Below the pieces are notes generated by a model. The model was not told the origin of the DNA and did not search any database. It saw nothing but the letters and a program-made list of their open reading frames with translations. Below, piece by piece: positions 3,485 to 4,573 of a stretch of 18,636 nt of DNA. The position numbers and the translations under genes were made by a program. Within the stretch, counting starts at the first letter, position 1. Each line of letters starts with the position of its first letter. This stretch comes from a virus (Duplodnaviria; Heunggongvirae; Uroviricota; Caudoviricetes): the IMG/VR virus record IMGVR_UViG_2690316267_000010; one strand, written 5' to 3'.

Positions 3485-3605
3485 TATAATTTTACTTTCA
3501 TTAGCAATTGGTTAGCTCAATTATAGCCCCAAAAGGTAAATTATCATCAACACATAAGCAAAGGACTGACAGGTGTCGCCCCCCCACCAGCCGCCCATTC
3601 ACCAC

Positions 3606-3632
3606 AAATAAAAAGCCTTCAGGACTGAAGGC
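3606..3632 (-). terminator. Intrinsic terminator after the small winged-helix gene
   Basis: Hairpin GCCTTCAG/CTGAAGGC overlapping the stop codon, followed on the minus strand by TTTTTATTT. Confidence 0.45.
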
Positions 3633-3816
3633 GTCTGTAACAACCGCACTGATAGTCTGCCAGACCCGCCATAACAAGCTGGGTCAGTATTAACTGGCAG
3701 CGTTCGCGTGAAAGGTAAGTATTCTGCGCAATCTCCCCGACTGTCGCCGGTTCGGTAACGCTTAATTCATCAAACACAACTCTGGCGGTTTCTGTCATAT
3801 CCTGCTGTTTCAGCAT
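3619..3816 (-). CDS. Small putative winged-helix DNA-binding protein (65 aa)
   Basis: ATG with AGGG-N9 RBS; product has an HTH-like segment TVGEIAQNTYLSRERCQLILTQLVMAGLADY; flanked by terminator-like hairpins on both sides. Confidence 0.4.
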   Translation of the reverse strand: MLKQQDMTETARVVFDELSVTEPATVGEIAQNTYLSRERCQLILTQLVMAGLADYQCGCYRRLQS

Positions 3817-3940
3817 GTCTTTTTACCCTTTCCGGTTAACGTGACATACCAATAACTCTTGTCTAAAAAGCCAGCAAGATAAAAAGCCAGTATTCACGAC
3901 CACCAGCGTGTTTACTGTACTGCACCAGGTTTACAGGTAC

Positions 3941-3965
3941 AAAAAAACCGCTCAGCGGCGGGTTT
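3941..3965 (-). terminator. Putative intrinsic terminator (A7/T7-flanked GC hairpin)
   Basis: Plus strand AAAAAAACCGCTCAGCGGCGGGTTT; on the minus strand a short GC hairpin followed by TTTTTTT. Confidence 0.35.
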
Positions 3966-4088
3966 AAGTTGTGTGGCGAAGTAACCACTCTTAACAGCAT
4001 ATTTTATTTTTTACGATTGTAAACGGTTGATTATTCATCTCCAATAAAAATAATTGTGTGGGTATGCCCTTAACAATGGATAAGAAAC

Positions 4089-4535
4089 ATGAATAAAATG
4101 ACTGTACTATTACTTAGCGCAACTATCATTTCAGGTTGTACTTCTTCCGTACCATTGATAAAGAAAACTCAATCAGGAAAACCTGAGGGGGTTTATCAAA
4201 ATACGACAAAAGATAAAGTCAAAGATGCCCTTGTGAATTACTGCAATAGTAGAGGGTTGATAATTTACAACGCGGATAACAGCAGTGTTATATGTGGTAA
4301 AGAACTGGAAGGCGGCTCTGCTGTTTTTGGACAAATGTTAATCGGCAATGCCTATTCAACAACCCCGGTATCAAAAGTCAGATTTACTATCGCTCAAGTT
4401 AATAACGATACAAAAGTGTGGGCCGATATGTGGATGGAAACTCAAATGGCAATGGGGCAAGTACAACAAATGTCTATAACAGACAACGCAAGCAAAAACA
4501 CTATCCAACAACGTCTTGATGAATTAAAACCTTAA
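4089..4535 (+). CDS. Predicted lipoprotein (148 aa), low-GC cargo gene
   Basis: N-terminus MNKMTVLLLSATIISGCTSS has a signal peptide plus lipobox (ISGC); AT-rich gene on the strand opposite to Q and the late genes. Confidence 0.7.
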   Translation: MNKMTVLLLSATIISGCTSSVPLIKKTQSGKPEGVYQNTTKDKVKDALVNYCNSRGLIIYNADNSSVICGKELEGGSAVFGQMLIGNAYSTTPVSKVRFTIAQVNNDTKVWADMWMETQMAMGQVQQMSITDNASKNTIQQRLDELKP

Positions 4536-4551
4536 ATAAATTAAATAAAAT

Positions 4552-4573
4552 GGGGAGAATAAATCGACTCCCC
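4552..4573 (-). terminator. Hairpin between the lipoprotein gene and Q (possible tR'-like or bidirectional terminator)
   Basis: GGGGAG-N10-CTCCCC stem; on the minus strand it is followed by ATTTTATTTAATTTATTTA. Confidence 0.35.

Follow-up and report, generated by a model that had tools for sequence, protein, structure and literature searches.

Accessory genes in two probable slots on either side of the late promoter of a 933W/DLP12-type lambdoid prophage

The DNA analysed here (18,636 nucleotides, hereafter the window) belongs to an Escherichia coli lambdoid (lambda-like) prophage that reads on the minus strand, and the part examined is probably the Q/pR′/late-leader junction of a 933W/DLP12-type prophage, with its accessory genes lodged in two separate slots. 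The first slot would extend from the stop codon of Q to the -35 hexamer of pR′ and would be filled by an AT-rich, opposite-strand cassette (~590 bp) in which a lipoprotein gene is accompanied by a promoter-like site and by a hairpin. The second would extend from the terminator that follows a winged-helix ORF to the ileZ-argN-argO tRNAs, and would be occupied by a PsrB-type AraC regulator with a promoter-like site of its own. The original prediction had described Q, an opposite-strand lipoprotein gene, a small helix-turn-helix gene and an AraC-family regulator in this part of the window, and all of them are present. The junction of Q and pR′ is already known as a classic cargo site, which in related phages receives stx, tRNAs, nmpC/lc or DNA methylases, and the site described here is mostly of this ordinary, already understood kind. 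Overall the biology is known; of the products discussed, the lipoprotein and the winged-helix protein alone have no known function.

The late antiterminator, pR′ and the late leader

The gene for the late antiterminator lies on the minus strand at positions 4616-4996 (the RefSeq start, an ATG at 4981, gives a protein of 121 aa) and is of the Q933/QuuD type (PF06530, E 2e-51). Its product shares 79% amino acid identity over 121 aa with the Q protein of Sakai prophage Sp5, and the gene shares 82-89% nucleotide identity with quuD of DLP12; the match to the Q21 structures 6P18 and 6JNX is weak. This type of Q is accompanied in the window by the homologous pR′ promoter and leader.

The late promoter pR′ is predicted on the minus strand at 3996-4023, with a -35 hexamer TTTACA (4018-4023), a spacer of 16 bp, a -10 hexamer TATGCT (3996-4001) and a probable +1 at the A in position 3989. 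Like the other two promoters considered below, those of the lipoprotein and AraC genes, it is assigned from consensus matches or homology; for pR′, a match in the consensus scan coincides with homology to DLP12 and to Sakai Sp5. In the latter prophage pR′ is mapped, the start site and the 3′ end of a 258-nt tR′ transcript having been determined by dRNA-seq and Term-seq (PMC7547250). The window (GTTTACAATCGTAAAAAATAAAATATGCTGTTAAGAGTGGTTAC...) can be aligned with Sp5 at pR′, and after a shift of +142 the Sp5 start reported by Sy et al. falls 7 nt after the TATCAT -10 hexamer, while the 258-nt 3′ end coincides with the last T of the terminator U-tract (PMC7547250). The same promoter and leader occur in DLP12 between nmpC and essD (86% identity over 83 nt). 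A second candidate for pR′, adjoining the Q stop codon (TTGAGG...TTTAAT, approximately 4578-4606), was rejected, since it is at 3996-4023 that the promoter and leader mapped in Sp5 and conserved in DLP12 can be aligned.

Downstream of pR′, the terminator scan and folding delineate a leader (3868-3989, minus strand) that contains tR′-type hairpins at 3947-3959 and 3886-3907 and ends with GCUGGCUUUUU at about 3868-3880. This leader is retained in the Stx2a phage EH2201, in phiP27, in Sp11 and Sp6, and in DLP12. An Rfam search (E-value mode) of positions 2300-5100 recovered three tRNAs only and gave no match for the leader. Terminator-like sites are enriched in the region as a whole, with 13 between 2400 and 5100 compared to 2.9 ± 1.7 in shuffled sequences. 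Three small ORFs (3863-4000, 3501-3677 and 3508-3693) overlap the promoter, the leader or the intergenic region and were judged to be spurious; the first of these also begins upstream of the predicted transcription start.

The arrangement suggests that pR′ would fire into the conserved leader with its tR′ hairpins, and that the first late ORF to be reached would be that of the 65-aa winged-helix protein, which ends in another terminator. A close precedent is the short pR′-tR′ transcript StxS of the Stx phages, with which the window shares a homologous pR′ and about 55 nt at the start of the leader, a segment that contains the first hairpin. The two differ in what follows: the leader in the window is approximately 110-120 nt in length and gives way to the winged-helix ORF, and homology to the 74-nt processed, Hfq-binding 3′ part of StxS (StxS_S), which was sought by alignment, was not found in it.

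A lipoprotein cassette between Q and pR′

Alignment of the junctions with Sakai Sp5 defines a cassette at 4024-4615 (plus strand), wherein ~590 bp of the window stand in place of ~60 bp of Sp5. Homology to Sp5 breaks off at the conserved terminus of Q and is restored from the -35 hexamer of pR′ onwards, which is the pattern of insertion expected of a moron. The cassette has a GC content of 36.9%, versus 0.44-0.53 (as a fraction) in its flanks, and the lipoprotein gene within it runs opposite to Q, as had been proposed. In all 185 of the 185 carrier genomes it is linked to this Q allele and to pR′, and the arrangement in phage PhiR40_1 is the same as in the window. Because it is located upstream of pR′ and antisense to the early transcript, the cassette lies outside the late operon.

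The encoded protein (148 aa; 4089-4535, plus strand) is a predicted lipoprotein, which begins with an MNK n-region followed by a hydrophobic core and the lipobox I-S-G-C. The signal peptide, MNKMTVLLLSATIISG-C17, thus ends in a sequence that conforms to the [LVI][ASTVI][GAS]C pattern, and the lipoprotein signal that had been anticipated is evident. Cys17 is invariant across 19 homologues (7 of which also match LPAM_1), Cys69 is likewise invariant in the family, and Cys52 is nearly so (at least 90%). The gene would be transcribed in the lysogen under its own sigma-70 promoter; its product would then be exported, acquire a lipid at Cys17 and be held in a membrane facing the periplasm. The Thr residue at position +2 suggests that this would be the outer membrane.

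The candidate sigma-70 promoter of the gene occupies 4027-4054 on the plus strand (TTGATT-16-AATAAT, 9 of 12 consensus matches), such that its -35 hexamer and that of pR′ are positioned back to back, 3 bp apart. At the other end, the terminator scan reveals a GC-rich hairpin (4554-4573) where the Q and lipoprotein genes converge. The hairpin folds on both strands (-13.4 and -11.2 kcal/mol, z = -2.66 in either case), but a T-run follows it on the minus strand only; it is therefore terminator-like for a transcript from the Q side and a mere hairpin for that of the lipoprotein gene, and the cassette may consequently lack clean termination in its own direction. The cassette resembles the lambdoid morons, which carry their own promoter and terminator, in being inserted relative to Sp5, in its deviant base composition, in its promoter-like site and hairpin, and in the occurrence of lipoprotein homologues at unrelated positions in other phages; it departs from them in that its terminator is weak in the direction of the gene.

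A near parallel to the cassette is found in DLP12 (order: quuD, nmpC on the minus strand, pR′ leader, essD) and in lc of phage PA-2. As in the window, an envelope gene on the opposite strand is situated between a QuuD/Q933-type Q and the same pR′ and leader, and in DLP12 a GC-rich hairpin again lies just 3′ of Q. The cargo of the window is a 148-aa lipoprotein rather than a porin, and the cassette measures 0.6 kb as opposed to more than 1 kb.

Searches for relatives of the lipoprotein yielded no match in Pfam, NCBIfam or the PDB, whether by sequence or by profile, and no match in BFVD by fold at E ≤ 0.001. In PHROG the sole match was phrog_3152, whose function is unknown, with no annotated exclusion family and no Cor or Llp model among the results. 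The protein is predicted to adopt a helix-grip-like alpha/beta fold, for which the structural matches are generic (helix-grip, KA1, BamC-like), with a resemblance to BamC domains and to the Francisella lipoprotein Flpp3. The domain family itself is large, comprising 854 clusters (50% identity) at E ≤ 1e-3 with neither a Pfam model nor an assigned function. Some of its distant members, probably encoded by chromosomal genes, are fused to PDZ, TPR/YfiO-like or SHOCT domains, and such fusions speak for a periplasmic binding module of general use rather than for a phage-specific exclusion factor. The close homologues are all encoded by phages or by a phage-plasmid: between the tape-measure gene and gpM in Citrobacter, adjoining the tail-tip gene J in Salmonella and Jejubacter, in a P1-like element of Enterobacter and in the early region in Phytobacter. 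By this sequence evidence, the lipoprotein gene appears to be a roving prophage moron, and as a self-contained moron it would be expressible in lysogens.

Our preferred guess, which we hold tentatively, is that the lipoprotein changes the envelope in a manner that shields the lysogen, for example by superinfection exclusion. The narrower proposal, that it blocks a phage receptor or phage entry in the functional manner of Cor, Llp or the Lc/NmpC porin switch, is possible, yet we consider it doubtful. It draws on the predicted lipoprotein nature of the protein, on a +2 residue other than Asp, on the use of the same Q-to-pR′ slot in DLP12 by nmpC, which encodes an outer-membrane porin, and on the position of three of the six homologue contexts within tail-tip modules (by J, or at the tape-measure gene and gpM). 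The Lc porin of PA-2 alters phage receptors, and Cor (phi80/N15/T1), Llp (T5) and Bor/Iss are, like the protein of the window, small phage-encoded lipoproteins, produced from the prophage or early in infection. Those proteins are roughly half the size of the 148-aa lipoprotein and bear no detectable sequence or profile relationship to its helix-grip-like domain. The receptor-blocking role put forward in the original prediction found no direct support, as the protein is linked by sequence or profile to no named exclusion family, its PADLOC, Pfam and PDB sequence searches are without a match, its fold matches are generic, and its distant relatives with PDZ or TPR fusions are probably chromosomal.

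A role in host fitness or virulence, in which the lipoprotein would act as an envelope conversion factor like Bor or Iss rather than against phages, is just as uncertain, and we regard it as equally likely as protection of the lysogen. Such a role might take the form of tolerance to stress, of resistance to serum or bile, or of a modulated outer-membrane assembly. The likeness to BamC domains and Flpp3, the breadth of the domain family and the fusions of some of its members, which are typical of envelope proteins, are consistent with it, as is the carriage of the gene by commensal, avian, bovine and human isolates. The lack of homology to Bor or Iss and the confinement of all close homologues to phages or a phage-plasmid argue against it.

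A third reading would assign the effect of the cassette mainly to its RNA or to transcriptional interference, whereby Q and the late genes would be damped and lysogeny stabilised. The poorly terminated plus-strand transcript would run antisense into Q, like paQ of lambda, given the one-sided T-run of the hairpin; the adjoining -35 hexamers and the strict linkage to one Q allele are likewise in keeping with interference. But at positions unrelated to Q the lipoprotein ORF shows strong conservation at the protein level, from which it follows that the lipoprotein itself is under selection, and we consider this reading improbable. A bolder combination, also rather unlikely in our view, would make the lipoprotein a member of a large, unannotated family of periplasmic helix-grip-like proteins, a moron moved about by temperate phages of the Enterobacterales and a new class of envelope-acting conversion or exclusion factors, whose placement in the window could additionally damp Q and the late genes in the manner of paQ.

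The first late ORF and the AraC-family regulator

The winged-helix protein (65 aa; 3619-3816, minus strand) is conserved and is encoded by the first ORF after pR′/tR′ in phages of several genera, behind three different families of Q; its gene is therefore considered backbone-like and not cargo. The protein has a winged-helix fold, and RefSeq assigns it to the TrmB family, although its score for TrmB (PF01978) is 17.8 bits, below the cut-off of 25.6. An intrinsic terminator-like hairpin (3615-3632, minus strand; -11.1 kcal/mol) overlies its stop codon and is followed by UUUUUAUUU. Together with the two leader hairpins upstream (3947-3959 and 3886-3907), this agrees with the earlier description of the small helix-turn-helix gene as flanked by terminators.

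The AraC/XylS-family regulator (237 aa) had been expected within 3485-4560; the gene is real, but it occupies 2771-3484 on the minus strand, outside that range. Residues 155-230 match PF00165 with 50.3 bits (cut-off 26.6) and PF12833 with 39.8 bits (cut-off 33.6), and the protein thus possesses the C-terminal double helix-turn-helix domain (~100 aa). A candidate promoter of its own is located at 3520-3547 on the minus strand (ATGATA-16-TATAAT, 10 of 12 matches), about 35 bp upstream of the ATG; it is the best promoter-like site in the region, and the region is retained in Sakai Sp11 and Xuzhou21. The gene would in addition be read through at a high level once Q antiterminates.

Comparison with known prophage regulators, as had been suggested, places the protein in the class involved in acid resistance and secretion. 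It shares 98.7% amino acid identity over 237 aa with ECs_2191, the only AraC gene of Sakai prophage Sp11, and with the Xuzhou21 homologue. The synteny of ECs_2191 in Sakai with pchB and nleG2-3/6-2/5-2, which are markers of OI-57, suggests that it corresponds to PsrB (z2104), and on the strength of this synteny and the near identity we take the regulator of the window to be of the PsrB type. PsrB activates gadE/hdeA and represses type III secretion (LEE) (reviewed in PMC10877973, PMC8565820). The regulator of the window should likewise activate gadE/hdeA, and with them glutamate-dependent acid resistance; where the host carries LEE, an indirect repression of type III secretion is to be expected as well. 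Its resemblance to YdeO, which extends along the entire protein (NCBIfam, E 4e-31), fits the activation that has been published for gadE/hdeA. As a PsrB-type protein with published effects, it represents a known regulator and not a new lead.

PsrB (OI-57) and PsrA (z1789, OI-50) of EHEC O157:H7 are 90% identical to each other, and the regulator of the window is provisionally assigned to PsrB, rather than to PsrA, by the Sakai synteny; the second O157 psr copy (PsrA) was sought in Sakai Sp6, Sp10, Sp12 and Sp14 and was not found there. The context is shared with that system (winged-helix ORF, AraC gene, ileZ/arg tRNAs, TerB), whereas the host of the window is not O157, the upstream Q allele is different and the lipoprotein cassette is additional. 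PatE (z0321, OI-8), YdeO and AppY belong to the same family of AraC-like acid-resistance regulators, with a common architecture and full-length alignments, and PatE and AppY are also prophage-borne. They are paralogous lineages rather than orthologues, with identities to the protein of the window of 37% over 235 aa for the PatE candidate ECs_0287, 31% for K-12 YdeO and 29% for AppY, and PatE and AppY occupy other positions in their prophages. Both the window and the annotation show the regulator to be carried by a lambdoid prophage.

Distribution of the accessory genes and the two slots

The tRNA cluster that borders the second slot (2495-2742, minus strand) consists of ileZ (CAU), argN (UCG) and argO (UCU) according to the RefSeq and Sakai annotations, with ileZ labelled as Met by ARAGORN, and is the cluster usually found upstream of stx or TerB in such phages. 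Between it and the terminator of the winged-helix ORF, the slot contains the AraC gene in Sp11, Xuzhou21 and phiSTEC1575-Stx2k, and a DNA methylase in the Stx2a phage EH2201, in phiP27, in PhiR40_1 and in Salmonella and Klebsiella prophages; it is vacant in Sp5, Sp10, Sp12 and Sp14. Breakpoints of homology occur at 3784, 3949/3964 and 3996/4003.

The exact sequences of the lipoprotein, winged-helix and AraC proteins each occur on at least 1000 public contigs, and together with their conserved homologues this indicates that all three ORFs are real genes. Among 5426 complete E. coli genomes, the lipoprotein is present in 185, the winged-helix ORF in thousands and the AraC gene in about 830 (595 at ≥99% nucleotide identity). 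The three genes recombine independently, each of them being found without the others in related phages, and the perfect (100%) matches derive from poultry, bovine and other isolates. PADLOC disclosed no credible defence-system match for the lipoprotein, winged-helix, AraC or TerB proteins.

The low GC content that had been noted for this stretch is real but modest: positions 3485-4560 have a value of 0.404, compared to a mean of 0.469 for the window and 0.53 in the neighbouring DUF968/KilA-N genes, which places them at the 14th percentile of same-sized windows, with lower values elsewhere. By part, the GC content is 0.369 in the lipoprotein cassette, 0.438 in the AraC gene and 0.505 in the winged-helix ORF. 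The minimum for the window, 0.30, is reached at about 15000-15600.

The original prediction had treated the lipoprotein, winged-helix and AraC genes together as cargo, a description that suits the lipoprotein and AraC genes, which are accessory at the Q/late junction, and not the leader-proximal winged-helix ORF. That the three form one low-GC island, acquired horizontally, inserted downstream of the late promoter and subject to joint expression, is very improbable and already largely refuted. In its favour, the genes adjoin one another, the GC content over most of the stretch is below that of the neighbouring backbone genes, and the exact 2.7-kb combination occurs at 98-100% identity, but in only 19 genomes. 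Against it, pR′ lies in the middle (with the cassette upstream and the other two genes downstream of it), the genes are on different strands, their distributions are very different, each occurs without the others, and the winged-helix ORF combines a GC content of 50.5% with conservation across genera.

The two-slot arrangement, which we favour, provides an anatomical map of the junction with distinct sites of insertion upstream and downstream of pR′; as the slots lie on either side of this promoter, their genes must differ in expression. The lipoprotein family, which is conserved and of unknown function, and the winged-helix protein, which is similarly uncharacterised and which many Stx and lambdoid phages encode in their first late ORF, are both flagged as subjects for cheap experiments. 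The PsrB-type regulator is common well beyond O157, its roughly 830 carriers among the 5426 genomes including poultry and commensal strains that are devoid of the lipoprotein, and its tuning of acid resistance may accordingly be broad.

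Gene order and base composition of the region

Over the 2.7 kb surrounding positions 3485-4560, the window matches chromosomal prophages from several strains of E. coli (e.g., the poultry strain E2) at 100% identity. In the records of these prophages, the genes listed below follow the direction of the window minus strand, except for one plus-strand gene. Minus-strand KilA-N (5996-6838) and DUF968 (4999-5994) genes, both also recognized by Pfam, precede the late antiterminator gene Q (4616-4981 or 4616-4996; Pfam PF06530). The plus-strand hypothetical gene (4089-4535), which encodes the predicted lipoprotein, is followed on the minus strand by a 198-bp hypothetical gene (the winged-helix ORF, 3619-3816), a gene annotated as a helix-turn-helix protein (2771-3484), in which Pfam identifies AraC domains, and tRNA-Ile, tRNA-Arg and tRNA-Arg genes (2742-2495; record annotation, ARAGORN and Rfam). 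Minus-strand genes for TerB (confirmed by Pfam), DUF3927 and DUF6645 come next, and the records place holin and lysozyme genes past the left end of the window. ARAGORN reads the first tRNA (2667-2742, minus strand) as Met (CAT); the homologous gene in RefSeq and Sakai is annotated as ileZ, i.e., a tRNA-Ile with a lysidine-modified CAU anticodon. Elsewhere in the window, in the early-left prophage region, a minus-strand ORF with a SocA/Panacea antitoxin domain (16838-17410), followed by a 139-aa ORF (16422-16841) with no Pfam match, may form a toxin-antitoxin or defence pair.

The original prediction placed a low-GC island of accessory genes at 3485-4560. All of its listed features are present: an ORF with a signal peptide and lipobox, a hairpin-bracketed 65-aa ORF and an AraC gene, the last lying just outside that range. 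The reduced GC content is likewise genuine (0.404, against 0.469 for the whole window) but not extreme. The minimum of the window (0.30) occurs near 15000-15600. The lipoprotein cassette has a GC content of 0.369, the AraC gene 0.438, the winged-helix ORF 0.505 and the neighbouring DUF968/KilA-N genes 0.53. The stretch at 14600-16200 (GC 0.30-0.33) contains a plus-strand 296-aa ORF (14949-15839) with no Pfam match, next to ORFs for a YfbR-like HD-domain protein (14310-14864) and a PrtN-like pyocin activator (15805-16161). Terminator-like sites number 13 in the region, compared to 2.9 +/- 1.7 in shuffled sequences, and hairpin-plus-T-run sites occur on both sides of the winged-helix ORF.

The late promoter and the lipoprotein cassette

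The anatomy of this region hinges on the position of the late promoter, pR'. In Sp5, the Stx2a phage of strain Sakai, pR' was mapped by dRNA-seq and the 3' end at its terminator, tR', was mapped 258 nt downstream (Sy et al., PMC7547250). Transferring these positions from one record version to the other required an offset of +142; the result is self-consistent, since the transcription start falls 7 nt past the TATCAT -10 and the 3' end coincides with the last T of a terminator U-tract. The Sp5 region (GTTTACGATCGTAAAAATCTGCATATCATGATAAGAGTGGTTAC...AACCCGCCGATGCGCGGGTTTTTTT) aligns with the window minus strand (GTTTACAATCGTAAAAAATAAAATATGCTGTTAAGAGTGGTTAC...AACCCGCCGCTGAGCGGTTTTTTT), placing the -35 (TTTACA) at 4018-4023, the -10 (TATGCT) at 3996-4001 and the predicted +1 at 3989. 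A consensus promoter scan independently detected the site at 3996-4023. In K-12, DLP12 carries pR' and its leader (86% over 83 nt) between nmpC and essD, away from quuD. The Q of the window fits this promoter: the protein is 79% identical to that of Sp5, and its DNA is 82-89% identical to quuD.

Homology to Sp5 breaks off where the conserved portion of Q ends and restarts exactly at the pR' -35. The cassette (4024-4615; ~590 bp in place of ~60 bp in Sp5) is therefore an insertion upstream of pR' that runs convergently to Q on the other strand. The slot is identical to that of nmpC in DLP12. The cassette has a plus-strand promoter-like site by consensus scan (TTGATT-16-AATAAT, 4027-4054), with its -35 just 3 bp from that of pR', and a GC hairpin (4554-4573) with a T-run on the Q side only. 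The Sp5 Q (1390-1824 of its locus) ends in a 23-aa C-terminal tail, the codons of which overlap the pR' -35; in the window, Q (4616-4981) ends in ...EMDR, and the tail seems dispensable, as the cassette insertion has removed it.

The Q-to-winged-helix junction seems to be a repeated collector of lipoprotein morons. An unrelated ~140-aa lipoprotein family (MKKxLIxAIGFxxVGCAG...) occurs there on the late strand, in phiSTEC1575-Stx2k (L002, 5599-6024), where it is flanked by two copies of the tR' hairpin, and in a Salmonella prophage (L016, 3424-3843).

In lysogens, the pR' leader (3868-3989, minus strand) should yield a short, terminated transcript of ~45-120 nt. Only approximately its first 55 nt are shared with the precursor of StxS, the pR'-tR' short transcript of Stx phages, and the 74-nt Hfq-binding part is missing. 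The product could represent a distinct pR'-derived small RNA.

The winged-helix ORF and the AraC regulator

The block comprising leader, winged-helix ORF and terminator (3583-3996) is 86-95% identical in the Stx2a phage EH2201, phiP27, Sp11 and phiSTEC1575-Stx2k. The protein has 300 homologues (77-98% identity) in Escherichia, Salmonella, Klebsiella, Citrobacter and Buttiauxella, and a sub-threshold Pfam match to TrmB. Its ORF is the first or second behind three unrelated Q families (PF06530, DUF1133/PF06576 and PF06323), a distribution that marks it as a conserved leader-proximal gene, not cargo in the sense of the other two. Given the position of its ORF past the tR' hairpins, the protein should be made mainly upon Q antitermination. 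The commonest next gene is an N6/N4 DNA methylase; in most phages an orphan methyltransferase of this type follows directly (e.g., loci L010, L011, L016 and L019), which suggests a regulator-methylase unit. In the window, the PsrB-type gene stands in the methylase position.

The AraC protein (237 aa) shares 98.7% identity with Sakai ECs_2191 and with the Xuzhou21 homologue, in agreement with the predicted virulence-type regulator, although not a novel one. ECs_2191 is the sole AraC gene of Sp11, which also carries pchB and nleG5-2/6-2/2-3; OI-57 contains these effector genes as z2149-z2151 and the PsrB gene as z2104 (PMC10877973, PMC8565820). Since the prophage of ECs_2191 carries the OI-57 effector genes, the window gene is assigned to the already known PsrB type. 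PsrA and PsrB are reported to increase GadE/YhiF, leading to repression of type III secretion, and PsrB to bind the promoters of hdeA and gadE and to increase acid resistance (PMC10877973, PMC8565820). Along its entire length, the window regulator can also be aligned with YdeO (NCBIfam E 4e-31; 31% identity), and it shows 37% identity to a PatE candidate and 29% to AppY. Just upstream of the gene, and past the winged-helix terminator, lies the region's best promoter-like site (ATGATA-16-TATAAT, 3520-3547), from which expression in the lysogen is plausible. Of 5426 complete genomes, 595 contain the gene at >=99% identity, and ~830 contain a match; in other phages the slot holds a methylase or is empty.

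The lipoprotein family and the composite locus

The predicted 148-aa lipoprotein begins with a textbook signal peptide and lipobox (MNKMTVLLLSATIISGC). Its gene occurs in 185 of the 5426 complete E. coli genomes, every time with the Q and pR' of the window, and in the sequenced phages PhiR40_1 and PhiR55_1. Homologues of 50-72% identity are found in Salmonella, Jejubacter, Citrobacter, Xenorhabdus, Morganella, Enterobacter and Phytobacter; the family retains Cys17 and Cys69 without exception and Cys52 almost always (>=90%), and the LIGNxYST and ETQM motifs are conserved. All examined contexts are mobile elements, at differing positions (between the tape-measure gene and gpM, adjoining the tail-tip J gene, inside a P1-like element, or in an early region), which is how a moron behaves.

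A profile search matched 854 clusters (E <= 1e-3), yet no Pfam model covers the domain; some longer, distant relatives (P0362, P0395, P0446 and P0371) contain C-terminal PDZ, TPR/YfiO-like or SHOCT domains. Sequence searches of Pfam, NCBIfam, PADLOC and the PDB gave no match for the lipoprotein, and its sole PHROG match is phrog_3152, of unknown function. The AF2 model is confident (pLDDT 85.7), with no match in BFVD. By location and analogy, the protein may act in exclusion, as the original prediction proposed, or in envelope fitness.

The original prediction is right in its general idea of accessory genes that include a virulence-type regulator, but in place of one island past the late promoter there is a composite: a lipoprotein moron upstream of pR', a conserved leader-proximal winged-helix ORF and a PsrB-type moron downstream. 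Only 19 genomes contain all of these parts together, a rarity expected from modular recombination at the breakpoints (3784, ~3950-3964 and ~3996-4003). Of the encoded proteins, those of the lipoprotein and winged-helix genes are members of conserved families without an assigned function. The locus is of a well-known type, and both the insertion site and the regulator were known before.
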